Origin: an uncultured Parcubacteria group bacterium
Lineage (GTDB): Bacteria > Patescibacteriota > Patescibacteriia > UBA9934 > CAMTUG01
NCBI GenBank assembly: GCA_947084965.1
Contig: CAMTUG010000001.1
Span: 74,166-138,165 of the forward strand
Direction: 5' to 3'
DNA: 64,000 nucleotides
Shown here: positions 6,342 to 35,243 of the stretch, piece by piece
How positions within the stretch are numbered: position 1 is the stretch's first letter
Layout: every line of letters starts with the position of its first letter
Program-made: the position numbers and the translations under genes
Notes under the pieces: model-generated
What the model was told of the DNA's origin: nothing
Seen by the model: only the letters and a program-made list of their open reading frames with translations
The model's database searches: none

Positions 6342-9300
6342 ATGGACGAACAGAAACCAAAACGGAACGGGTATCTTCTTCGCCGGGCAGGGGCGACCGT
6401 TTGTCTCCTTTTTGTTTTGTTTGCGGCGGTGCTTCCGTCAGCGGTATCCGCTCAGGTTGTTCAGGTTGTCACTGCTCCAGGTGTGCCAATCGAGACGACA
6501 GAAGATCTAAAAAAGGAGCTCATTGAAAAGCCGTTCCAGGTCGCCTTTTTGACGATCATCTGGAATTTCATGACGTTTATTTCGAATCGCATCGCCTACG
6601 ATGCAGCTGTGGCGATCGCGACGGCCGGTAATGGGGAAGAGCCGTTGATTGAATTGCGCGATCCGATGCGTTATTTAGAGGATCTAGGAAAGGACGTCGT
6701 TGGTGCGGGTATCGATGCCTTAAATCAGTCGCTTGAGGCGGTTAACATCCACTTTGATCTGTGTGCTCCAAAAGCGCCACTGGTTAAACTTTCGCTCCAG
6801 CTTGGTATTCGTTCGGCCTACGACCGCCCGGAACCAGATTGTGATTTTCAAGAGCTGACAGAAAACTGGGAGGCCTTTACGGCATCTACGATCTTTTCCG
6901 CCAGCCCGGACGAGGCGGCACTGTTTCAATTTTCCGCCACGATGAATCCGCGCACGACTGATCTCTCCTCTGCTATTACCCTTCTTGATCAGATTTATAC
7001 CGACGAAGCTCTGACAAAATCAAGTAGTTTTGCTGAGTATCTTGCCAACAACGGGTATAAGAACGTCGTTAATAGCATCACGGGTAATGTAGAGACCCCA
7101 GCTGATCTTGTTGAAAATGCATGGAGCAGGTCGGTTGAAATTGCTATTCCAACAAAGGAAGACCGCATCGCTGGGTTTAACTTTTTCTTAGAGTCTAAGG
7201 ATTTATGGAAACAGCTTGGTGTTTCTGCCTTGAGTACATTTGCCAACACGTTGCTTTCTACATTCACCCAGCGCATTTATAGTGGGATGTTTGACATCGA
7301 CATTCCAGAATCTGATGTATTGGACGTCGGAACGATTACGTTTCGCGGTGGTGTCGATGCGGCCGAATCGCATTTCCGGTCGATGTTTACAGCCAAAATC
7401 ATCAGTTTAGATAACTACAGTGTCATTTCAGAATTTTTGACTTGCCCGGGAACGACGACACGACAGCTAAACAACTGCGTGATGGATAGTGGCTTCGGTA
7501 ACGCTGTCGCTGGGGCTGAGGTTGGTGACCCGTTTACGGTACAAGAAGCGATTGATGAAGGATACATTCATGGCGATTGGCCGCTGATCAGCCAGGACGA
7601 TTCTCGCGACCTGGACCAGAATTGTTATAGTTACGGATATTGTTACGGCAACTTAGTTCGCATGCGCAAAGCGCGGATCATCCCGGTGGGATGGGAGATG
7701 GCCGCATCGATCCAGGCGGCTGGAGATTCAGATACTTTACAAGATGTCATCGATCAGTTTGATGACTGTAATGCTGATAATGAACGGGATCCGAGCCATC
7801 CGTATTGCCACCTAATCGACCCAAATTGGGTTTTGAAATATCCCTCGACGCAATGCCGCGCGAGTGTGCCAGGACAATTAGTTGACAACGACGGCATAAA
7901 ACGCGGAACAGAGTGTGTTGATGCTCCGAGCTGTATTCAAGAAGATGCCGGGGGAGAGTGTGTTGGTGGTTATGGCTACTGTGTGCGTGAGCAGAACAGT
8001 TTCGACTTCCGTGGCACTTCTTGTCCCGAGCAATACGCTACCTGTTTGGCAGTCAGTAATGAAGATGACGAATTGTCGGGGAACTATCTCTTTAATACCA
8101 CAGACCTCGAAGAATGCGATGCGGATTCTGCAGGCTGCCGCTGGTATCAGACGACCAAAGAATCAACAGACGATGTCTTTGACTGGCCGACGATCGATGA
8201 CTTGCCAACGCTTGACGCCGCGGCTGGCACGTATGCTTCTCGTTTTTACTACAACAACGACGTCGAGGAATGTGATTCAGACGACGCTGGTTGTACGCGG
8301 GTGATTGAAAAGACGGACGATGTCACCTTGAACCTCATCCGAAATCCGAGCTTTGAAGATGATGAGGATGCCGACGGTGTGCCGGATTACTGGACGTTCA
8401 CGGGAGCGGGAACGTACGACCTTTCAGGGACGACCTCCGCTTTTGCCAGTGATTCAGTAGCTCCAGGGGCTTCCGGATCATCGGCGATTATTTATCAGAC
8501 CGATCTCCCGCTCCAGCAGGCGACGTTCTACACTCTTTCGTTTTATGCCGAGCAGGCCGATGCGACCAGTAGTGAGACATTAACGGTTTATGCCGTTATA
8601 AATTCAGAGGATGGTTCAGCAGAAGTTGACCTGAGTGGTACGAGTTATGGCGGTGACTGTACGATTGCCGATTTAGATAGCTCTGGAGGCGAGGAAACGA
8701 TCCTCATGAGTGTGACCCCGGCCTCGAACACTTCCGAGCGCTTCAGTTGTACCTTTACCTCACCAACGTTCACGGATGAGGATCTTGGAGTGCGAATCCA
8801 GTTCCTCGACTTCATCGGCGAGGAGATTTATGTCGACGCCGTTCAGCTTGAAGCCGACGAGGATCTTTCGGATTTCGTCGTTGGATACGGCACAACGCTT
8901 GAGCAGTTGAATCCGACGTACTATAAATTACCACCGTCTTACCTGGGCTGTACGGGCGATAGCGACGTGGATCCTGCTGAATGCGCTGATTACGCGCCGG
9001 TCTGTACAGCGCAAGACGTTGGATGTTCCGAATACACTCCGGAAAACGGGGATCCGGTGGTGACCGGTATCGCTGGTGCGCTTGATGAATGTCCGGCGGT
9101 TTGTTCAGGGTATGACACCTATAAGCAAGAACCGACGCGGTACGAACCGGACGGAGATTTCCCGTTGTACTTTATCCCTGACACCGCCATCTCGTGCGGC
9201 GCGCAGTACGTTGGATGTGATGAATTCACCAATTTAAATACCGAAGAGCGCGAATCCTACACCTACTTGCGCGCTTGCCAGACGACGACCCAAACGACCG

Positions 9301-12300
9301 ACGAAGCGACCTACTACACCTGGGAAGGCTCAGATCTCGAAGGGTTCCAGCTCGTCTCTTGGTCGCTGATGCAGAGCGACACCACGGACGCTCCGTGTAC
9401 GACCTGGTCAACAACTTCAAGCGCGATCGAGTGTGCGGATCTTTCCACTGCCGGCACGGACGATGCTTGCGATGAGCACGACGATATTTTTGAGAATCCC
9501 GACTGTCGTGAATTCTACGACGCCGATGGCGACATCTTCTATCGTCTTTGGTCAGAAACGGTGACAGTAACGGATTCGTGCACTCCGTATCGCAAGACGC
9601 AGATCGTCGGTGATGATGCCACGGAACAAGCGAGCAACTGCTCCGGTGCCGGTGGTTATTGGGACGGAACGGTCGGGGAGTGTAATTTTTACGGCTACGC
9701 GGATGAGTCCGACGAGTGCCCAGCCACGGCCAACGGGTGTCGTGAATACACCGGCGGCAATAGCCGCAACTCCTCGGTTGTTTATGAGGATGATGTAGAG
9801 GATGAAGACATCGATGAATATATCGTCAACGCAACGACTACCACGGCCGAGGTCAGCAATGAATCGGTCGCCACAGACGGTCACTCGATTCACGTTGAGA
9901 TGTCGGCCGATGACGGCTATGTGGCGGTCGCATCCGCAACGATGGCCGACTGTTCTGAATCGGACGGCTGTACCGCCGATACTGCGGATGAAGACGCCGA
10001 CGGTTCCACCGCTGATTGTGGCGAATCCGACGGTTGTGATGCAGAAGTCGGCACGCTCGGAGTTTCCTGCACGATTAGCGAGGGGGACGCTACGTGTGGC
10101 GCCTTGACCGGGGAACTGGCAGAAGGAAAAGTGTACATCTTAAAATTCTGGGCGAAGACTACGACCAGCAGCTTAGTCATCACTCCGGTATTTATCGAAC
10201 AGGCAGGGACAGGGGATGAATATCAGTTTGATACAGTGACCCTTTCTCCGATCTGGAAGGAATACACCGTCGGCCCGCTCGACACAACGGATGAATCCGG
10301 TTTCGATGATTCAGCCCTTTTGGCCTTCATGGCCGACAGCGGGGCGGAGTTCTATCTCGACAACATCACCTTGCGACAGACCGAAGAAAACATCACCGTT
10401 ATTAAAGATTCTTGGGAAACCCCAGCGACCTGTGATGAAACAGAGGATGGCGTCAGTTCAGATCAGTATCATCTCGGGTGCCAGGAATATCGCGATCAAG
10501 ATGGCGAAACGGTGTACTTGAAGTCCTTCACGCGATTGTGCGACGAAGATCAGGTCGGTTGTGCGGCGTTCTACGACACCCAATCATCGGATTCCGTCTA
10601 CGGCGCGGTGTACAACATCACCTGTGAAGCGGTCACCTCGGCCGGGATCGGCGGAGCGTGCGAAATCGACGGGGAAGAAGTTTGCGACATGGCTGCAGGG
10701 GAGTCTTCCTGCCAGTTTGACTGGATTGGCGGGGTGCCGCGCGAAGATGATGGAACGCTTAAAGATCTGGATAGCACCGATTATCAGTTAGCTCTAAACG
10801 CGGATGCGGTGGTCGTCCCGCCAGACGAAGTGACCTACTTCGTCGCCAGCGATACGTATGCCTGTGACGAAGGCGCTATGGGCTGTATGGAGGTCGGCGT
10901 GCCGACGTACAACCAAGATCAATCGCAGGTAGCCTCCTGGGAAACGAGCTATCTGTTGAATGTGGTCGATGCGTATGATGATATTTTGTGCAACGTCGAT
11001 ACGCTCTTCTGCGAAGCCTGGGACACGACTCAAAATGGGACGTATTACTTCAAGTATCCGCAGGACAAAACGTGCGAATACCGCACCGGAGTGGTGATCG
11101 ACGGATCAGAGTATTCGGGGTGGTTCCGCACGGACACCGATCAATTCTGCTACGGTTCAGGGACCTGTTCGGATGACGCGACCGTTTCCTGCAGCCTTGA
11201 TGCTGATTGTGCCTCTGCCGATGCAGGAACGTGTGAAATCAACGATGGATCGTACGTTCAAGGCGGCACGTTCTCTGGTGTTTGGAGGAACGGGGATACG
11301 GCGTTCGACGGTTGGGTTGGCACGTGTGACGATGAATACGACCTCTGTTCAGAATTTATCGACACACTCGATGTTGGGGAGAACGGCCTTTACGGAACGG
11401 ACGGAGGTTCGTCCAGCTTCTTCTTGAATAACGATGAACTCGATGAGTCAAACTTGCCAGCGTCAAAGCAGTGTTCGGGCCAAGTGAGTCAGAAACAAGG
11501 GTGTATCCTGTTTAATGACACCCTCGATTCTGAATTGAATTATAATGCTTCAGCAACGTATACGCTGAGTGTCCATGCTAACGAATTCTATTCAGGTACA
11601 ATGACCTACGGACTGGTCGATCCGATTAGCTGCCCAGATTCTGGGGTCGTTGAAACGTTGAGTGGCACGTCCTACGATCTTTGCGCGATGCGTTGTACGT
11701 ACCGCAACGATCTGTTGCATCCTTACGAAGACTATTCAACGACCACGGGAGAGGATTTTTACACTTTTACGACTTCTTGTATCTATGACAGTGACTGCCC
11801 ATTGATTGAATCGGACGGCAGCGATCTTGTTGACGGAACGTGCGAAACAGGAACCTTTACTGGTGCAGGAAGCTCAGGGAGCATTACGGTTCCGACTCTT
11901 GAAGACGATACCAATCGTATCCAAAAAGTGAATCTCGACCGCGACTGCGCCGAGTGGCTTTCGTGTTCATCGCAAACAACAGTTTGGGATGAGTCAGCGA
12001 GCGCCTACAAGACCGTCTGTGATGGTATCGGAATGTGTAATGAATACTCCTCGCTCGGTGAAACAAGTTTCTGCACCAACTGGAACATTGATGCCAGTCC
12101 AACTCTGCTGACGAGTAATCATTACGCTTCGCGCGATATTGGTTGGTACGGATATGAATATGCTGGGTATGCCGTTCCGTATAGTCTGCCGGCGCATCTT
12201 TTGAGTCAAAAGAATGTCAATCCTAGCAAATGGTGTACTTACTCAACAGCAGATGGCAGTGTGTATGATGGCCGCGATTACGGATACGAGACCCCGTTTA

Positions 12301-15300
12301 TTGATTGTTCGGCAGATGATGGTATGTGTGATGATGCGACGGGCTCGACGAGCGCCGTCTGTAGTTCGGCTCCAACGGACTATCGCTTGGTCTACGACGC
12401 TGGAACGTGCGACGAGGAAAACGGTGAAAGTTGTGAAGTTGGTTTCTGTGCCTCAAGCGGCGCATCGTGCGGAACCGACAGTGACTGTGATTCGGGCGAC
12501 ACCTGTGAAACAGGGTATTGTGGATACGCCGCATCATCCGGAACGTGCGAGGTTGATGCAGACTGTACCGACTCAGTGTACAACACCTGTAATAACAATC
12601 TCTGCACTACCTTAACAGCCGAAGCCTGTTCCGTCTCTTCAGAATGTACTAATACGTCACTTGGTACCGCTACTTGTATTGATTCAGCTACATCGATGGA
12701 CGGGATGTGCTTTGAAAACGAGTGTTTGGTTGATGTTTCTGATCGAGATGAAGACGGGAATCTTGATGACTTTGATTACGATCTGGCCGAAGCTCTTGAT
12801 TGTCGAGGGTGGCCAGAAAGTTCCGCTCCGTTCCCAAATGAAGTAGTAACGATCTGGCAAAACGCCGACGGGGCGACCGACGCCACCCCAGATGGTGATG
12901 AAAACGCGATCACGACGCTGTCGACCTTTGAAGATGTCAATTTGTGTGCGGGCGGCGAAGAATGTCTCTGTAACTACGATGTGGTTGAGTATGGCACGGG
13001 GAAAACGTGGTATTACGATCAGGCCTCAGACGCGATCCCGACCTATAAGTGCGTTGGTGGGTTGTATGATGGTGGCGAATGTGATGCCACCGCCGGTGGA
13101 GCGATGGTTATTGATGATGTTATTCAGACAGAATTGTGTTCAGAGGGGTCAGGAGTTTGCACGCGCCTTTCTTCCCAACAAACGATGATTGGGCTTGAGG
13201 GTTACTGCTTAGAGCGTGACACGTCGCTCACCCTAAACGGTCAGACCGGGGAAGCACCGTGTCTGACCTGGCTCCCCGTCGATCGTCCAGCGGGCGCGAC
13301 GGACATTTACGGCAAAGCGACCGAAGCGGGATATCCACTCGAAGACACCTTCTACTGCGGCGACATCGATCTGTACATGGATGTTCCGACTTCGTCGATC
13401 GGTTGTGCCCAGCACGAAACTTCGTCTGGTGGTCAAGATTGTAACTATGTAAGTAGTACGGAAGATCCTTACTGGGGTGACTTGCTCCGCGGGGACGGAA
13501 ACGCCGTTTGTCCGGACGGTATGTTCGCTGTGATCGGCCGCTGTATCGATTCGGATGGTAAAACGGACGGTGATTTTGATGACCCGTATGCCTCCTCGAG
13601 TGGAAATTCAGCCGTAGATACCTGCATGGCGGACGCTGCTGATGATTCAAACGATCATCCCTACTTCTGTGTCCCTGAAGGTTCGGTACATACAGAAGGG
13701 ATCGACGAAGGAGATCTTTGCGACATTCCAGATGACGACCTGCTTAATGACTTCGGAGCTGCCTTAAATGAGGTAAAAGAAAGCGACTGGGATTACGATG
13801 ATGTCTGGGACATTAACGGAACGTGGGGTCAGATGGAGACCGTAGCTTCATCGTTATCACTCGGGAACGATGTCTATAAGATTGAGGCCCAGCCGGATGA
13901 ATTCGATACACTGTACGAGTACTATTCTGATTGTGTATTAGAAGGAGTCGACTACTTATCGACTAAGAATAATCCGTACTTAATCCCGACACCGGATAAC
14001 TTACTTAGCGGTTCGTACTACACCTGTTCAAACAGCAGCGGCCCGAGCCGCGAAGCGGCAGTTTGTGCTGATGGAAACTATGATAATCGTGACCTCGTTT
14101 CGGAAGTGGAGAATAGTTACCACGACCTGACATTTGGCACTGTCGTTTATCCAGGGTGTTCTTCGATTGTCCAGGTCGCTTCGACGACAGAAAACAGAGC
14201 CTGGACCGACCGCGTGCTCTTTGATGGTCGCGCGTATGCGATCGATCAGTTCTCGTCCGCTTCGCTCGCCTTCACGATGGATACGGTGGAAAATCCGTTC
14301 GGTGTCTCGGTATCTCCGACCTATTTGAACGAAGAGATTGATCCGAACCCAGCCCGTCCGCTTAGCTGTCTTGGTGACATTGACGGTGACGGCTATGATG
14401 ACATCTATTTGCCGAACGTGAGTGGATCATGTGGTTCTGGCTCATTGATCTCGGATGGCCTCAACCAGGGCCGCGCTTACGACGACTTTGACGGGGAAAC
14501 GGGAGGGTACATCATGGTTAGCGACAGTGAAAATCTGCGCCCAGATCAGGTTCTCTTCGGCCTGATCTCCCCGAGTACGGCTTGGGAAAACGCCATCTCC
14601 GAAATTTTTGCCTTCGCTAATACCTGGTCGAGGTTTGATCAAGGATTGGACGATGATGACGACTTTGAATCGATCGGGTCGTACAGTACTCTTGCAGAAT
14701 CATCCGGCCTGTGGGACATCACGGACTCTGGGGACAGTAATATCGAAGATGGTAATCCGACTGCGCCTGTTGTGCGTGCGGTCGGTGAAACGTGTGTCGA
14801 TCAGTACTGCCGTGAAGGGGTCGAAGATACCTTCAGCGTTAACGGCCAAGACGACAGCGACTTAACCGGTGATGGCGGCCAATTCTTCGCTGACGTGAAG
14901 TTCTTCGTCGAAGCGAACGCCAACCAGATGCCGATTCGTCGTGTGATCGTTGACTGGCAGGATCAGCGCGATACCATGTCCGGTTCGTTGACCGACGATA
15001 ATTACTACAAGAACCGCCGTGGGTTAAACGACAGCAACAACCATTGGTGCGAGCAGGAAACGAACTGGGGCGAAACCGCCGAAGCCTGTGAACCAAACTA
15101 CTTCAATACCACCAATGTCTACACCTGTTCCATGGCACTCGTGGAAACGCTCCCTGTCTGTTCCACTAATGACTCAGGTAACTTGGAAGAATCTCCATGT
15201 CGTGGTGGTGACTCCGGCTACAGCGAAGATGTCTGTATCTTCCAGCCGCGTGTCCACGTTCGCGACAACTGGGGTTGGTGCACAGGGGTGTGTGGGACGG

Positions 15301-15443
15301 ATGGGGAGAGCTGTTATGATGGGGATGGGGAAATTATGACTAATGATAGTACTGATGAGTGTAATTTAGACTACCCGAATGCAGATATGACAGCATGGGA
15401 TCCCTGGGTCTATTACGAAGGACTGATCATCGTTGAGCCATAG
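6342..15443 (+). CDS. Giant secreted Cys-rich acidic surface protein (3033 aa), function unknown
   Basis: Uninterrupted 9.1 kb ORF; signal peptide; >150 Cys, D/T/S/G-rich; no recognisable catalytic motif. Confidence 0.85.
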   Translation: MDEQKPKRNGYLLRRAGATVCLLFVLFAAVLPSAVSAQVVQVVTAPGVPIETTEDLKKELIEKPFQVAFLTIIWNFMTFISNRIAYDAAVAIATAGNGEEPLIELRDPMRYLEDLGKDVVGAGIDALNQSLEAVNIHFDLCAPKAPLVKLSLQLGIRSAYDRPEPDCDFQELTENWEAFTASTIFSASPDEAALFQFSATMNPRTTDLSSAITLLDQIYTDEALTKSSSFAEYLANNGYKNVVNSITGNVETPADLVENAWSRSVEIAIPTKEDRIAGFNFFLESKDLWKQLGVSALSTFANTLLSTFTQRIYSGMFDIDIPESDVLDVGTITFRGGVDAAESHFRSMFTAKIISLDNYSVISEFLTCPGTTTRQLNNCVMDSGFGNAVAGAEVGDPFTVQEAIDEGYIHGDWPLISQDDSRDLDQNCYSYGYCYGNLVRMRKARIIPVGWEMAASIQAAGDSDTLQDVIDQFDDCNADNERDPSHPYCHLIDPNWVLKYPSTQCRASVPGQLVDNDGIKRGTECVDAPSCIQEDAGGECVGGYGYCVREQNSFDFRGTSCPEQYATCLAVSNEDDELSGNYLFNTTDLEECDADSAGCRWYQTTKESTDDVFDWPTIDDLPTLDAAAGTYASRFYYNNDVEECDSDDAGCTRVIEKTDDVTLNLIRNPSFEDDEDADGVPDYWTFTGAGTYDLSGTTSAFASDSVAPGASGSSAIIYQTDLPLQQATFYTLSFYAEQADATSSETLTVYAVINSEDGSAEVDLSGTSYGGDCTIADLDSSGGEETILMSVTPASNTSERFSCTFTSPTFTDEDLGVRIQFLDFIGEEIYVDAVQLEADEDLSDFVVGYGTTLEQLNPTYYKLPPSYLGCTGDSDVDPAECADYAPVCTAQDVGCSEYTPENGDPVVTGIAGALDECPAVCSGYDTYKQEPTRYEPDGDFPLYFIPDTAISCGAQYVGCDEFTNLNTEERESYTYLRACQTTTQTTDEATYYTWEGSDLEGFQLVSWSLMQSDTTDAPCTTWSTTSSAIECADLSTAGTDDACDEHDDIFENPDCREFYDADGDIFYRLWSETVTVTDSCTPYRKTQIVGDDATEQASNCSGAGGYWDGTVGECNFYGYADESDECPATANGCREYTGGNSRNSSVVYEDDVEDEDIDEYIVNATTTTAEVSNESVATDGHSIHVEMSADDGYVAVASATMADCSESDGCTADTADEDADGSTADCGESDGCDAEVGTLGVSCTISEGDATCGALTGELAEGKVYILKFWAKTTTSSLVITPVFIEQAGTGDEYQFDTVTLSPIWKEYTVGPLDTTDESGFDDSALLAFMADSGAEFYLDNITLRQTEENITVIKDSWETPATCDETEDGVSSDQYHLGCQEYRDQDGETVYLKSFTRLCDEDQVGCAAFYDTQSSDSVYGAVYNITCEAVTSAGIGGACEIDGEEVCDMAAGESSCQFDWIGGVPREDDGTLKDLDSTDYQLALNADAVVVPPDEVTYFVASDTYACDEGAMGCMEVGVPTYNQDQSQVASWETSYLLNVVDAYDDILCNVDTLFCEAWDTTQNGTYYFKYPQDKTCEYRTGVVIDGSEYSGWFRTDTDQFCYGSGTCSDDATVSCSLDADCASADAGTCEINDGSYVQGGTFSGVWRNGDTAFDGWVGTCDDEYDLCSEFIDTLDVGENGLYGTDGGSSSFFLNNDELDESNLPASKQCSGQVSQKQGCILFNDTLDSELNYNASATYTLSVHANEFYSGTMTYGLVDPISCPDSGVVETLSGTSYDLCAMRCTYRNDLLHPYEDYSTTTGEDFYTFTTSCIYDSDCPLIESDGSDLVDGTCETGTFTGAGSSGSITVPTLEDDTNRIQKVNLDRDCAEWLSCSSQTTVWDESASAYKTVCDGIGMCNEYSSLGETSFCTNWNIDASPTLLTSNHYASRDIGWYGYEYAGYAVPYSLPAHLLSQKNVNPSKWCTYSTADGSVYDGRDYGYETPFIDCSADDGMCDDATGSTSAVCSSAPTDYRLVYDAGTCDEENGESCEVGFCASSGASCGTDSDCDSGDTCETGYCGYAASSGTCEVDADCTDSVYNTCNNNLCTTLTAEACSVSSECTNTSLGTATCIDSATSMDGMCFENECLVDVSDRDEDGNLDDFDYDLAEALDCRGWPESSAPFPNEVVTIWQNADGATDATPDGDENAITTLSTFEDVNLCAGGEECLCNYDVVEYGTGKTWYYDQASDAIPTYKCVGGLYDGGECDATAGGAMVIDDVIQTELCSEGSGVCTRLSSQQTMIGLEGYCLERDTSLTLNGQTGEAPCLTWLPVDRPAGATDIYGKATEAGYPLEDTFYCGDIDLYMDVPTSSIGCAQHETSSGGQDCNYVSSTEDPYWGDLLRGDGNAVCPDGMFAVIGRCIDSDGKTDGDFDDPYASSSGNSAVDTCMADAADDSNDHPYFCVPEGSVHTEGIDEGDLCDIPDDDLLNDFGAALNEVKESDWDYDDVWDINGTWGQMETVASSLSLGNDVYKIEAQPDEFDTLYEYYSDCVLEGVDYLSTKNNPYLIPTPDNLLSGSYYTCSNSSGPSREAAVCADGNYDNRDLVSEVENSYHDLTFGTVVYPGCSSIVQVASTTENRAWTDRVLFDGRAYAIDQFSSASLAFTMDTVENPFGVSVSPTYLNEEIDPNPARPLSCLGDIDGDGYDDIYLPNVSGSCGSGSLISDGLNQGRAYDDFDGETGGYIMVSDSENLRPDQVLFGLISPSTAWENAISEIFAFANTWSRFDQGLDDDDDFESIGSYSTLAESSGLWDITDSGDSNIEDGNPTAPVVRAVGETCVDQYCREGVEDTFSVNGQDDSDLTGDGGQFFADVKFFVEANANQMPIRRVIVDWQDQRDTMSGSLTDDNYYKNRRGLNDSNNHWCEQETNWGETAEACEPNYFNTTNVYTCSMALVETLPVCSTNDSGNLEESPCRGGDSGYSEDVCIFQPRVHVRDNWGWCTGVCGTDGESCYDGDGEIMTNDSTDECNLDYPNADMTAWDPWVYYEGLIIVEP

Positions 15444-17990: not shown

Positions 17991-18216
17991 CGAATCATGA
18001 GATTTGAAATGTTCTGACAGTATCTGGTTCCAGCGTGATCACTCAGGCGGTTAATTACGGGGGGACTTGAGCGGCGCGCGGCCCCGGGGCTTCAACACAC
18101 ATTTCTGTCCGGTTTCACCGATCTCCCGACGCTGGGAAAGTACTAGCCCGGCGCGGGAGGGGCGATGAACGGTTCATCGGTACTCTCGTCAACACGAGAC
18201 AATAAAGGAGGGCGCC

Positions 18217-20286
18217 ATGCGCCTCACCAGGCTTCTTTACACCCACATCATCGTCTTCATCCTCGGGATGATCACGATGCTCACGAGCCTCACCGGCTGC
18301 TCGGATCCGTTCGAACAGTGGCAGGAAGAGATGCGTCTGGCCGAGATCGGCGGCCACGAAGGCGACATCATCGATCTGCCGTTCGAGGCGGGCTACGAGG
18401 CGCTCTGCACCCAGGGGGCGCATGGGGAGTACAGCCACGCGAGCGAGTCGACCGAGTACGACATCGACCTCGACACCCCGAACGACAGCGTCGACCTCGT
18501 CTACGCCCCGGTCGGCGGGGTGGCCTACGTCCACATGGACTCGGCGTCCAAGAACTTCGGCTACCACGTCAACATCGACCGCGACGACGGGACCTACGTC
18601 ATCCTCGGACACCTCTCGGACATCTACGTCGAGGACGGGGTCGAGGTGGCGGCCGGGCAGATCGTCGGGACGGAAGGGTGCACGGGCTACTGCTCGGGCG
18701 ACCACGTCCACTTCGGTCTGCACTCCGGCGATGCGGCGAGCCCCGGTGAGCGGGCGACCTCGATCAAGGTCAGCTACCTGGTCGACGACGTGACCGCCGG
18801 GGAGGAGGGCGAGGTCTACACCAGCGAGGAGATGATCTGCGACCTCGAAGGCGGCGGGCACCGCTACCGCTCGCTCCTCACGACCCCGACCTGGCACCCC
18901 AACGGGTCCTTGGTCAAGACCCCGTGGGACGAGGAGGTCTTCCTGATCGAGAACGGCACCAAGCGGTGGATCACCGATCAGGACGTCTTCTGGTCGCTCG
19001 GCTACTCCTTCGAGGACGTGGCGCTCATCTCCGGCACGGAGCTGAACTGCTACGACCAGGGGGATGACGTGGCCACGGCGGACGAGGTGCCGACCGCGTA
19101 CACGAGCGCGGACGGGACGGTGACGCTCCACGAGGGCGAGCTGGTCAAGGAGAGCTCGGAGAGCGACGTCTACGTCATCTCGGAAGGGGTGGCGATGCCG
19201 ATCGAATCCTGGGACGTGCTCCTGAAGCTCGGCTGGGGTGAGCGGCCGATCACCACGATCGACGACGGGACGATCGAGGAGATCGTCGGCGCGGTCGGGA
19301 GCTGTGCGGCCGACATCTGGTGCCTCGACCACGACCTCCTCGAGGCGTGCGAAACGACCAACCCGGCCAACGTCGGCGGGAGCGAGGACACCGCGAGCGA
19401 GGAGGAGAACGAGACCGAGGCTGTGGATCCGTCGTCGATGCTCGAGGGGGAGATCGAGGACGGGGAGTTCGGGCTCGTGTTCCTGCCGCCCGATGGCTAC
19501 GAAGCGGAGCACATCACCCTCACCGGGACCGCGATCGACGCTGAGGGGAACACCCTCTACGCCGAGCGCGAGCTGGCGAGCGAGAACGGGGACACGGCGC
19601 TCTGGTGGACGACCATGGCGTTCGAGGACGGTGGAGTCTTCGACTTCTACGTCACCTACACCGACGGGATGGGCGACCGCTACTCCTGCGAGATCGAGAA
19701 CGACGGGAGCTACCGCATGAACGGCACGCTCTACATGGTCTACGGCGCCGAGGTGATCGACATCGAGACCGTGCTCGAGAGTGCCAACGGCGGGCGGCAC
19801 TGCTACGTGCGGCCGCGGATTCCGCCGGGGTACACGATCGAGATCGATACCGGCGACTCGAACAGCAGCGGGGACACCGGAGAGCCGACGGTCGACACCG
19901 GAACCGCCACCGACGCGGAGGTCGAGATCTGCTACGCCCCCGGGGTGACGATGTCTGGCGGGGAGCTCTACCTCGACGGAGGATTCTTCACCCACTGGGA
20001 TACGAGTCCGGCTGACACCGCCGCTTCCGGCGACACGACGATGTGCGAAACGGTCACCGCTGTCTCAGGAGAGACGATCAAGGTGAACGGTTGGTTCATC
20101 GAGCGCGGCGGATCCGGGACGGTCGAGTGGGCGGCGTACAACAACGTGTGCGCGTCGATCGACTGGCAGGGGAGTGTGACCGTGGACTCGGCGAGCGTCA
20201 GCGTGACGACCGCGCCGTGGAGCGCCGCGTCCTGGGCCAGCGACCCCTGCATGACCGGCGGGGACGGCTACTTCACCGTCCCGTAG
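18217..20286 (+). CDS. Lipoprotein with M23 (LytM-type) metallopeptidase domain, 689 aa, GC-rich
   Basis: Lipobox LTGC; HxxxD (HVNIDRDD) and HxH (GDHVHFGLH) motifs; AGGAGG RBS; about 68 % GC. Confidence 0.75.
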   Translation: MRLTRLLYTHIIVFILGMITMLTSLTGCSDPFEQWQEEMRLAEIGGHEGDIIDLPFEAGYEALCTQGAHGEYSHASESTEYDIDLDTPNDSVDLVYAPVGGVAYVHMDSASKNFGYHVNIDRDDGTYVILGHLSDIYVEDGVEVAAGQIVGTEGCTGYCSGDHVHFGLHSGDAASPGERATSIKVSYLVDDVTAGEEGEVYTSEEMICDLEGGGHRYRSLLTTPTWHPNGSLVKTPWDEEVFLIENGTKRWITDQDVFWSLGYSFEDVALISGTELNCYDQGDDVATADEVPTAYTSADGTVTLHEGELVKESSESDVYVISEGVAMPIESWDVLLKLGWGERPITTIDDGTIEEIVGAVGSCAADIWCLDHDLLEACETTNPANVGGSEDTASEEENETEAVDPSSMLEGEIEDGEFGLVFLPPDGYEAEHITLTGTAIDAEGNTLYAERELASENGDTALWWTTMAFEDGGVFDFYVTYTDGMGDRYSCEIENDGSYRMNGTLYMVYGAEVIDIETVLESANGGRHCYVRPRIPPGYTIEIDTGDSNSSGDTGEPTVDTGTATDAEVEICYAPGVTMSGGELYLDGGFFTHWDTSPADTAASGDTTMCETVTAVSGETIKVNGWFIERGGSGTVEWAAYNNVCASIDWQGSVTVDSASVSVTTAPWSAASWASDPCMTGGDGYFTVP

Positions 20287-32762: not shown

Positions 32763-32902
32763 GCTTAGCGAGTGAAACCGCTCCAAACGTTCAGTTACAA
32801 GGCGCGGGGAGGCGACGAGGAGACGTCCAAAACGTACGTTGACGAAGTCGTCGGGGCCCCGCAACGCAGTAAATGAATGTTTGGTGCGGTTTCACATTAC
32901 AA

Positions 32903-32979
32903 GCGCCCGTAGCTCAGTTGGATAGAGCGTCAGGTTGCGGACCTGAAGGTCGCATGTTCGAGTCATGCCGGGCGCACCA
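32903..32979 (+). tRNA. tRNA-Arg, anticodon reads GCG (unusual), CCA encoded
   Basis: Acceptor gcgcccg/cgggcgc, D-loop with A20, T-loop TTCGAGT, anticodon loop ttGCGga. Confidence 0.75.
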
Positions 32980-32985
32980 CAAAAT

Positions 32986-33016
32986 AAAAAACACCCACCG
33001 GGTGATTTTTTATTTT
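32986..33016 (+). terminator. Rho-independent terminator after tRNA-Arg
   Basis: caccc-acc-gggtg hairpin then ATTTTTTATTTT. Confidence 0.6.
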
Positions 33017-33162
33017 GCGGCATGACTCGAAATGGGGAAAGGGGTTCGGGGAAAACGGGAGTTTTCCCCGCGAGGCCGCGGCGGAGGAAGGGGTGACAGC
33101 GAGCATATGCGAGCGCCAGAGGGGAAACGACGTTTCCCCATGGAGAGGAGCGGAGCGACGAT

Positions 33163-33222
33163 GTTCGCGTCATGCCGGGCGCACCACAAAATAAAAAACA
33201 CCCACCGGGTGATTTTTTATTT
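33163..33222 (+). repeat. 60-nt direct duplicate of tRNA-Arg 3' end plus terminator (attR-like)
   Basis: 59/60 identity to 32956-33015. Confidence 0.7.
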
Positions 33223-33245: not shown

Positions 33246-35243
33246 ATGCTGCCCCTTAGTGCAATCCCTGGACTCGGTCCTAAAGCGATCGCTGATTTAA
33301 AGCGGCTGGGGGTTTTGTCTGTCGCCGATCTGCTGGCTCATTATCCTTTGCGTTACCAAGATCTGTCACACAAGGTGACGACGGCAGAGTTGCATGCAGG
33401 GGAAACAGTGACGATCGATGGGGTAATAAAGTCGATCGCATCGCGCATCACGCCGCATCGCCGGATGACCTTAATCGAAGCCGTTTTGAGTGATGATCAT
33501 GGATCGGTCAAAGTGATCTGGTTTAATCAACGCTATTTGATGAAAGCTCTGCATCCCGGAAGCCTAGTGAGGTTATCTGGGCAGGTGACGCTCGGTCCGC
33601 GCGGGTTGCAGTTCACCAATCCGACCTTTGAACTGCAGCGGGCGGGGGAGTCGGTGCATACCGGACGGATCGTGCCGATCTATCCGCTGACCGGCGGAAT
33701 CACCCAGAAACGGATTCGTTCGGCTGTGGCGTGGGCGATGAAGGTCGTGCCGATCGCAGACTGGTTGCCAGAGGAGGTCAAAGAACGCGAGGATTTGATC
33801 GACTTGGTGGAGGCGGTCCAGCAGATTCATCTGCCAGATTCTTTTAAGGCGGTCGAAGAGGCCAGGAAGCGGTTGCAATTTGATGAACTGTTTTTGTACG
33901 AGTTGACGCATCTGAAGTCACGGGCTGAGTTGAAGAAGCTCACCGCGCCGTCGATCCCTTCGTCGATCGATGCGGTTAAAACATTCGTGGCGTCCCTTCC
34001 GTTTGAGTTAACCGGAGCACAGCGCAAAGCGGCTTGGCAGATTATGCAGGATATGGAGCGGGGTGAGCCGATGAATCGACTGCTCGAAGGGGACGTTGGA
34101 TCAGGAAAGACGGTGGTGGCCGCGATCGCGGCGTTCAATGCCGCTCAGAGTGGATTTCAAACCGCCGTATTGGCACCAACGGAGATTCTTGCGGAACAGC
34201 ACGATCGATCATTTGAGAAGCTCGGTCTGAACGTTTCGTTAATTACAAGTTCGCACGATGGAGACCCGTTGGCCGATGTCGTTGTTGGTACACACGCCTT
34301 ACTCGAGACGAAGATTCAGTTTCGTAAGCTTGGATTAGTTGTCGTTGATGAACAGCATCGTTTCGGGGTGCGCCAGCGGCAGGCGCTACAAGAGAAAGAG
34401 ATCGAGAACGTTGGTGTGCCGCATTTATTGTCGATGACCGCCACGCCGATTCCGCGTACACTGGCCCTAACGCTCTACGGAGATCTTGATCTATCCGTGC
34501 TCGATGAACTTCCGAAGGGTCGCAAACCGATTGCGACACGACTGGTGAAGTACGGCAAAGAGGCGGAGATGTACAAGCATGTGCGGAGTGAGCTTGATCT
34601 GGGGCGTCAGGCGTTTGTTGTCTGCCCCCTGATCGATTCTTCTGAAGAAGTTGCAGCAAAGTCCGTCACCGATCTGTTCGCGCTGCTCACAGCAGGGGAG
34701 CTGAAGGCGTACCGTTGTGTGATGCTGCATGGGCGGATGAAGAGCGAGGAGAAAGATGCGATCATGCAGGCGTTCAAGCGCGGAGAGATAGACGTGTTGG
34801 TGGCGACCACGGTGATCGAGGTTGGCGTTGATGTGCCGAATGCGACGGTGATGTGCATCGAGGGGGCAGAGCGGTTTGGACTAGCTCAAATGCACCAGCT
34901 GCGTGGGCGTGTTGGGCGTTCGGACAAGCCGTCGTTTTGTTATCTAAATCCGAGTGGGTTTGTTCCTGAAAAAACATACGAGCGCCTTAAGGCGCTCGTC
35001 GATTGTCAGAATGGGTTTGAGCTTGCCGAACGTGATTTGGCATTGCGCGGGTCAGGGGAGCTCTATGGCACGCAGCAGTCTGGCTACCCAGAGTTTAAGA
35101 TCGCAAATATTTTTGATGCGCCGCTTATTTCGAAGGCGCGGAACGCGGCGGCGGATCTGTTAAAAGAGGATGGGGAATTGGTGGAGCATCCGGCCGTGCG
35201 TGCTCGATTGGAGGAATATGTGCATCGAGTGCACTTTGAGTAG
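33246..35243 (+). CDS. recG: ATP-dependent DNA helicase RecG
   Basis: Wedge domain, DVGSGKTVVA Walker A, DEQHRFG; possible GTG start at 33228. Confidence 0.9.
   Translation: MLPLSAIPGLGPKAIADLKRLGVLSVADLLAHYPLRYQDLSHKVTTAELHAGETVTIDGVIKSIASRITPHRRMTLIEAVLSDDHGSVKVIWFNQRYLMKALHPGSLVRLSGQVTLGPRGLQFTNPTFELQRAGESVHTGRIVPIYPLTGGITQKRIRSAVAWAMKVVPIADWLPEEVKEREDLIDLVEAVQQIHLPDSFKAVEEARKRLQFDELFLYELTHLKSRAELKKLTAPSIPSSIDAVKTFVASLPFELTGAQRKAAWQIMQDMERGEPMNRLLEGDVGSGKTVVAAIAAFNAAQSGFQTAVLAPTEILAEQHDRSFEKLGLNVSLITSSHDGDPLADVVVGTHALLETKIQFRKLGLVVVDEQHRFGVRQRQALQEKEIENVGVPHLLSMTATPIPRTLALTLYGDLDLSVLDELPKGRKPIATRLVKYGKEAEMYKHVRSELDLGRQAFVVCPLIDSSEEVAAKSVTDLFALLTAGELKAYRCVMLHGRMKSEEKDAIMQAFKRGEIDVLVATTVIEVGVDVPNATVMCIEGAERFGLAQMHQLRGRVGRSDKPSFCYLNPSGFVPEKTYERLKALVDCQNGFELAERDLALRGSGELYGTQQSGYPEFKIANIFDAPLISKARNAAADLLKEDGELVEHPAVRARLEEYVHRVHFE

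Follow-up and report, generated by a model that had tools for sequence, protein, structure and literature searches.

An intact tRNA gene together with a 3' tRNA fragment and a direct repeat that begins in the T-arm and exceeds 40 nt is an arrangement which, among the mechanisms known to us, typically arises when a circular element that brings a replacement gene end integrates. Williams 2002 reportedly counts the T-loop among the canonical sublocations at which integrases cross over in tRNA genes. The identity blocks at tRNA genes can reach far past the 7-bp core, up to about 250 bp and into the rho-independent terminator, because attP supplies the replacement gene end (PMC10111431), and tRNA fragments are well-documented attR relics (PMC9897764). 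The island PYG1, for instance, is flanked by 44-bp repeats with a 1-bp difference (PMC9897764).

Here, we analysed a 64-kb stretch of DNA from an uncultured Parcubacteria group bacterium, referred to as the window, in which the 3' end and the terminator of a tRNA-Arg gene are present twice. The locus shares with the tRNA fragments of van der Gulik et al. 2023 (PMC9897764) a partial 3' copy with one mismatch in a downstream direct repeat; the copies of that study are separated by 9-23 kb (or 121 kb) of foreign DNA as compared to 145 bp here, and the present fragment, being so short, would not be mistaken for a tRNA gene. It also resembles the attL/attR pairs of tRNA-gene islands and prophages (Islander/TIGER type, Williams 2002 classes) in that an intact tRNA gene is paired with a 3' fragment, the repeat runs from the T-arm past the gene end into the terminator and the unoccupied site is seen elsewhere. 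The distance between the repeats of such islands is in the range of kilobases, whereas the 145 bp at this locus hold no integrase, no cargo and no recognisable element, and there is an extra inverted copy of the T-arm. Regarding the features by which attL/attR pairs are recognised, we found a 3'-tRNA direct repeat with an intact gene and a fragment, a repeat start at a canonical sublocation and an unoccupied site in relatives; we found neither an integrase inside the element, the 145-bp insert showing no trace of coding, nor the element or its attP in the viral contigs, phages, plasmids and 169 related loci that were searched.

A further comparison can be made with the CIMEs, which are cis-mobilisable, att-flanked remnants of ICESt1/ICESt3 of Streptococcus thermophilus without recombination and conjugation genes. 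These remnants likewise combine functional-looking att copies with the lack of a recombinase and, by analogy, the copies described here could in principle serve an incoming related element. CIMEs differ from the present scar, however, in that they measure kilobases, derive from known ICEs and have reportedly been mobilised in experiments.

Duplicated tRNA-Arg 3' end and terminator

The locus consists of the following parts, besides the insert that is dealt with below:

32903-32979, plus strand: intact tRNA-Arg(GCG) gene with encoded CCA (ARAGORN; Rfam RF00005, 70.8 bits)
32954-33015, plus strand: direct repeat copy 1, attL-like, made up of the last 26 nt of the tRNA and a 36-nt trailer with terminator (repeat search; BLAST)
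32980-33015, no strand assigned: terminator 1, palindromic, bidirectional and intrinsic, with an A-run, the CACCCACCGGGTG stem-loop at 32992-33004 and a T-run (terminator scan of both strands; inverted repeat I6)
33161-33222, plus strand: direct repeat copy 2, attR-like, made up of the tRNA 3' fragment (33161-33186) and terminator 2 (33187-33222) (repeat search, family D1)
33246-35243, plus strand: recG, the downstream neighbour, by which the comparative loci were anchored (the identical product has the Pfam domains RecG_wedge, DEAD and Helicase_C)

The repeat search defined a direct repeat of 62 nt, in which 32954-33015 and 33161-33222 are 98% identical with one mismatch, and local BLAST returned the pair with E = 2e-30. 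The sequence-only reading had described this repeat as 60 nt long with one mismatch, covering the last 24 nt of tRNA-Arg plus the terminator and enclosing an insert of 147 bp; it was confirmed and proved to be 2 nt longer, and with the 62-nt boundaries it includes 26 nt of the tRNA and leaves 145 bp between the copies. The tRNA part of the repeat comprises 3 nt of the T-stem 5' strand, the T-loop, the T-stem 3' strand, the acceptor 3' strand and ACCA, with the repeat start at 32954 lying 3 nt ahead of the T-loop TTCGAGT. The sole mismatch is an A to C change in this loop (TTCGAGT in copy 1, TTCGCGT in copy 2), by which the conserved A58 is replaced by C in the fragment while the working tRNA is unchanged. 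This mismatch would fit a difference between attP and attB to the left of the crossover as well as decay of the unselected copy. The 36-nt trailer in the repeat was recognised on both strands as an intrinsic terminator, with an A-run on one side and a T-run on the other, and so was the terminator of copy 2 (33187-33222). ARAGORN counted three tRNAs in the window and made no call at copy 2, and Rfam gave no tRNA match over 33100-33190 at E values up to 10. As read from the sequence, the T-stem of the fragment is down to 3 bp. A tRNA gene or a tRNA-like RNA at copy 2 was rejected, as the tRNA models recognised no cloverleaf there.

A duplication of this kind could also be produced by the assembly itself, if a loop or a strain-variant bubble of a metagenome assembly were written out as A-B-A, and the source genome is indeed a Patescibacteria contig from a metagenome. 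The window codes for a RecG identical to protein P0001, which is recorded from an NCBI source (a 476-kb contig) and from Logan, and the sole other record of these genes is this one-run Logan assembly, which is broken exactly at the repeats: the Logan contig carrying recG (L081, run ERR3478686) opens with the final 30 nt of the repeat and continues with C. The Logan contig upstream, which was sought via the membrane protein with two start choices, was not on record. On the other hand, a k=31 graph must branch at the start of L081 if the repeat end has two continuations, and the fact that this contig begins exactly at the k-1 overlap of the repeat end points to two continuations in the reads. 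Furthermore, the copies differ at one base and therefore form distinct k-mer paths in the graph instead of one collapsed node, and both the A to B and the B to A junctions are needed in the reads for the assembled path. The break point of L081 and the one-base difference between the copies make a collapsed-loop artefact unlikely, and we regard an artefact of the assembly as highly improbable altogether.

Insert between the repeat copies

The insert and the features recognised within it are the following:

33016-33160, plus strand: 145-bp insert between the repeat copies (G 43%, purine 67%, GC 64%)
33018-33031, minus strand: inverted copy of the T-loop and the T-stem 3' strand, TTCGAGTCATGCCG (inverted repeats I5 and I7; pattern search; BLAST)
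33034-33059, plus strand: G tract with four runs, GGGGAAAGGGGTTCGGGGAAAACGGG (regular-expression scan)
33048-33069, plus strand: hairpin 1, GGGGAAAACGGGAGTTTTCCCC (sequence; pattern search; paired in minimum-free-energy folds)
33121-33139, plus strand: hairpin 2, GGGGAAACGACGTTTCCCC (sequence; pattern search; self-complementary in BLAST; paired in folds)

The composition of the insert is foreign-looking, as its G and purine contents make it an outlier in the top 0.4-0.6% of 145-nt segments. A canonical G-quadruplex motif (four runs of 3 or more G, loops of no more than 7) occurs just once on the two strands of the 64 kb, at 33034-33059, and about 127 of the 145 bp are without detectable template in the flanks or in the window on both strands. 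The inverted T-arm with which the insert had been said to begin turned out to be a perfect complement, with 33018-33031 matching 32957-32970 at 14 of 14 nt (BLAST E = 3.5e-4), and the 14-nt inverted repeats at 33018-33031 and 33164-33177 are tRNA-derived. On the minus strand, this inverted copy abuts the terminator trailer directly and reads as a tRNA 3' end minus 9 nt (GGCGCACCA). The two similar hairpins of the sequence-only reading were also recovered, at 33048-33069 and 33121-33139; both are of the GGGGAAA/TTTCCCC type, and their shared pattern has three overlapping matches in the 64 kb, all of them within the insert, as compared to 0.17 expected by chance. By eye, five GGGGAAA/TTTCCCC heptamers were counted in the insert versus 15 in the whole window. 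The fold of 33016-33190 was moderately more stable than shuffled controls (z = -3.3).

The location of the inverted T-arm invites an explanation by a local replication or repair error that involves no mobile element and whose product is a neutral indel. In such an event, switching or fold-back at the palindromic terminator would have given rise to the inverted T-arm, a second switch would have re-copied the tRNA 3' end plus the terminator, and the filler between the copies would be untemplated or distantly templated. Quasipalindrome template switching (the Ripley model) yields inverted duplications, and the locus resembles such events in that an inverted copy of the flank lies directly across an existing perfect hairpin, here the terminator, and lengthens the palindrome. 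Accordingly, the terminator is a strong palindrome between A and T runs, and the inverted T-arm on its far side extends it (inverted repeats I5 and I6; long hairpin in the fold). In addition, the G-quadruplex motif and the hairpins of the insert can stall replication. Ripley-type events leave, however, the 127 bp of unrelated G-rich DNA and the 62-nt direct duplication unexplained. Both the lack of a template for most of the insert and a composition far from that of the local DNA argue against an error of this kind, and so do the junctions at 33015/33016 and 33160/33161, which, by reading the sequence, show no microhomology. Moreover, the inverted copy departs from a simple fold-back product by deletions of 9 nt and 1 nt, and the three T-arm copies have nearly the same T-stem boundary, which is predicted by a site-specific process and not by random switching. 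We consider a repair error to be a rather unlikely origin, although the comparison with related genomes (see below) adds to the points in its favour.

When sought elsewhere, the insert was not found a second time: local BLAST returned no other copy in the window, no copy was present in the 169 related loci, viral contigs gave zero matches with five patterns, phages gave chance-level matches only and plasmids gave none. On neither strand was the insert significantly similar to the upstream or the downstream flank, and its halves resemble each other significantly only in the hairpin stems; two tandem 72-nt units were rejected, as nothing significant was left past the common hairpin stem. Several other identities of the insert were considered. 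Coding DNA was rejected, since the six ORFs across the insert are absent from a collection of 15 billion proteins and the 75-aa ORF, which is the longest plus-strand ORF over the insert, has no homolog among 1.8 billion representatives. A known RNA family was rejected as well, since Rfam gave chance-level matches only over the insert. The suggestion that the insert might be expressed as a small RNA gained no support, with neither a promoter-like site inside the insert nor an RNA-family match. A second, decayed tRNA gene or a tandem tRNA duplication was unsupported, the alignment of the insert to the 174 nt upstream, among them the 5' part of the tRNA, being no better than that of shuffles and no tRNA-model match being obtained. 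An invertible switch acting via the inverted T-arm copies was rejected, as the segment has no promoter and no invertase was found; furthermore, one of the two possible inversions would wreck the tRNA. A MITE or another transposon with terminal inverted repeats does not agree with a duplication of 62 nt instead of 2-15 bp or with a single copy in the window and the loci. An IS200/IS605-derived PATE or a REP-like element would account for two similar hairpins, but not for the 62-nt duplication and the lack of other copies, and no Y1 transposase match was obtained among the ORFs scanned.

The recombinase survey covered 45 large ORFs of the 64-kb window, 38 by a Pfam scan and seven by the Pfam annotation returned for them, and none matched an integrase, recombinase, invertase or transposase family. 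An integrase nearby was thus rejected, the scanned ORFs consisting of housekeeping and T4SS-like genes only. The core genes of the window include those of GroEL, release factor, KsgA, PheRS, DnaE, Fpg, ThrRS, MiaA, GatB, a ClpB-like protein, RadA and RecG; the T4SS-like genes, which are of a sort common in these bacteria, code for PrgI, a VirB4-like ATPase and T4SS_pilin with M23 peptidase. Two further observations were made in the same region. An ORF of 3033 aa (6342-15443, plus strand), with the carbohydrate-binding CBM_4_9 as its sole Pfam match, probably codes for a large surface protein. The GC content peaks at 65% in 18001-20000 as compared to about 53% elsewhere, and this peak lies inside the gene of a 689-aa M23 peptidase (18217-20286).

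A distinctly unlikely explanation is that nothing was ever lost from the locus and that it represents a miniature non-autonomous element that was small from the outset, or a small functional RNA or DNA element. In a first version, a unit of about 207 bp, consisting of the att block and the 145 bp, would be mobilised in trans by an integrase encoded elsewhere; in a second version, a functional element with hairpins, a tRNA-like 3' end and its own terminator would have been captured downstream of tRNA-Arg. Repeats of 98% identity with a mere 145 bp between them are easiest to understand if no deletion took place, and the two similar hairpins, the repeated GGGGAAA and the stability of the fold of 33016-33190 (z-score as given above) look organised rather than decayed. 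Besides, the terminator is carried within the unit, and GCGCCAG (33113-33119) can pair at six of seven positions with CGGGCGC in an acceptor-like manner and at tRNA-like spacing within 33113-33186, as read from the sequence. This pairing may be due to chance, as the insert aligns to the upstream 174 nt no better than shuffles do. Against such an element, there is a single copy in the 64-kb window and none in the viral contigs, phages, plasmids and 169 loci searched, the insert is without a promoter-like site, and copy 2 neither matches an RNA family nor looks tRNA-like to ARAGORN and Rfam. In addition, we know of no trans-acting integrase for it and, to our knowledge, there is no precedent for an excised circle of about 200 bp as an integrase substrate. 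It is very doubtful that the 207-bp unit is a complete miniature integrative element of Patescibacteria, specific for the tRNA-Arg T-loop and mobilised in trans, or else a small regulatory RNA or DNA with a mimic of the tRNA 3' end. As a miniature element, it would have as its cargo only binding sites for an integrase or accessory proteins, in the form of the reiterated GGGGAAA, and the replacement tRNA end.

Single-copy arrangement in related genomes

By its RecG homologs, the source organism belongs to the Patescibacteria and is related to Uhrbacteria-like genomes, with a RecG identity of only 58-69% to the nearest relatives; the best RecG matches were 44% in the genome scan and 58% in the metagenome scan, and the RecG search returned no homologs between 69% and 100% identity. 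Two of the related loci, L163 (RecG 67% identical) and L083 (58%), have the order tRNA-Ser(TGA), 164-aa membrane protein, tRNA-Arg(GCG), terminator and recG, and both possess one tRNA 3' end and one terminator, located 54 nt and 40 nt upstream of recG, respectively. Since these loci are single-copy with the same gene order, the extra 207 bp of the window (the 62-nt block plus 145 bp) are an insertion in its lineage. In copy 2, the tRNA 3' end precedes recG by 59 nt, which is comparable to the 54 and 40 nt in L163 and L083, so that copy 2 holds the ancestral position. The empty site with a single tRNA-terminator copy that the sequence-only reading had proposed to look for was thus found, in two genomes that are both distant.

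The terminator sequences are unrelated among the window, L163 and L083, and the duplicated block therefore includes lineage-specific sequence. The block stops exactly where this lineage-specific terminator of the host ends, which speaks for a repair error as described above, and the lack of a recombinase match in the scanned ORFs and of a donor sequence can be read in the same way. A tRNA-Arg gene is likewise present in L083, L163, L164 and L165. The anticodon of the tRNA-Arg next to recG is GCG in the window, L083, L085, L163, L164 and L165, unlike the ACG (inosine) type that is the usual anticodon of this arginine tRNA in bacteria; this may reflect the decoding strategy of the lineage.

The junction upstream of recG varies among other relatives. 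In L164 and L165, tRNA-Arg and recG are about 1.8 kb apart, with unrelated genes in the gap (670-2500); we rejected these genes as island cargo, as neither integrases nor direct repeats were found there. An inverted tRNA-Ser(GCT) is located upstream of recG in L166 (1-110) and L169 (1-180), and an inverted block of core genes, GATase/302-aa gene, occupies this place in L168 (400-2240). The variants in these five loci indicate that the junction is prone to rearrangement in this group, and such rearrangements next to recG in several relatives are a further point in favour of a repair error.

Two non-coding segments were observed in the course of this comparison. The first is a rod-like hairpin of about 125 nt at 32772-32895 (plus strand) of the window, between the gene of the 164-aa membrane protein and tRNA-Arg, with a minimum free energy of -67 kcal/mol (z = -7.0). 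It is 87% identical in L163 (689-812), despite a RecG identity of 67%, with compensatory changes in 6 of 43 pairs, and it is absent from L083, where the gap between gene and tRNA is 17 nt. It is single-copy in the window and belongs to no Rfam family; it could be a structured RNA of a new type, a tRNA processing stem or a palindromic insertion. The second, which is about 100-150 nt long and contains hairpins, is conserved upstream of recG in L164 (2300-2400), L165 (2320-2400), L167 (1040-1150) and L168 (2270-2380). It reads roughly ...CCCTCTCC..GGAGAGGGG..TTTATG..CATCAA..CCGCTCTCCGAA.GGAGA..., followed by the promoter-like TTGTCAAAGTTTGCTATACT, and is absent from the window.

Possible origin and meaning of the scar

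The explanation that we tentatively favour, at somewhat below an even chance, is that the feature is the relic of a Campbell-type insertion, probably by a tyrosine integrase, at the T-loop of tRNA-Arg, and that the element was later almost entirely deleted. A circular foreign DNA would have carried a replacement tRNA 3' end plus terminator as the attP identity block and would have recombined with the chromosomal tRNA-Arg(GCG) gene at or near the T-loop. This would leave an intact tRNA with terminator as attL (copy 1) on the left, whereas the original 3' fragment with its terminator would have been pushed to the right, just upstream of recG, as attR (copy 2). Subsequently, the element would have been lost nearly completely, including any integrase gene and probably by one deletion, with the 145 bp of G-rich, hairpin-forming DNA as a remnant. 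That an integrase was at work, which way the event went and that a deletion followed are inferred from the present arrangement. The tRNA-Arg and its terminator likely remain functional, and recG likely retains its native upstream sequence. The fragment in copy 2 is probably silent, because it is not a tRNA and is flanked by two terminators, and the relic as a whole is probably inert.

An integration relic is consistent with an intact tRNA and a 3' tRNA fragment at opposite ends, which have a 62-nt repeat of 98% identity in common, and with an insert that looks non-local in its composition, its sole G-quadruplex motif and the lack of significant similarity to the flanks and the window. Speculatively, the five GGGGAAA resemble the reiterated protein-binding sites of an att arm. 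The anatomy and the unoccupied site uphold in part the earlier interpretation of the repeats as products of integrase-mediated attL/attR formation, while the actors of such an event did not come to light: no recombinase family was matched by the 45 large ORFs of the 64-kb window that were scanned, and no donor element, attP or second insert copy was found in the viral contigs, phages, plasmids and 169 related loci. Other points also weigh against a relic. The identity block spans the whole lineage-specific terminator, and the incoming element would need to have gained this sequence beforehand. Simple integration would not be expected to give an inverted T-arm copy right behind terminator 1. 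One difference in 62 nt together with the near-total loss of the element would require a rapid, large deletion, and the unoccupied sites are those of distant relatives only (RecG 58-67%).

The locus is best filed as a very small example of the known kind of tRNA-island scar, in Patescibacteria. As such, it is an ordinary kind of genomic scar which by itself raises no new question, and it would be a real surprise only if a 200-bp integrative element mobilised in trans turned out to be true. If it is indeed an integration relic, it would testify to the former passage of a mobile element through a tRNA gene of a streamlined Patescibacteria chromosome, and it would mean that an integrated element can be reduced to about 150 bp in such genomes before the att copies have diverged to any extent. 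The scar would then be useful for the calibration of island-finding tools, which may mistake scars for live att sites, and for the annotation of tRNA fragments.
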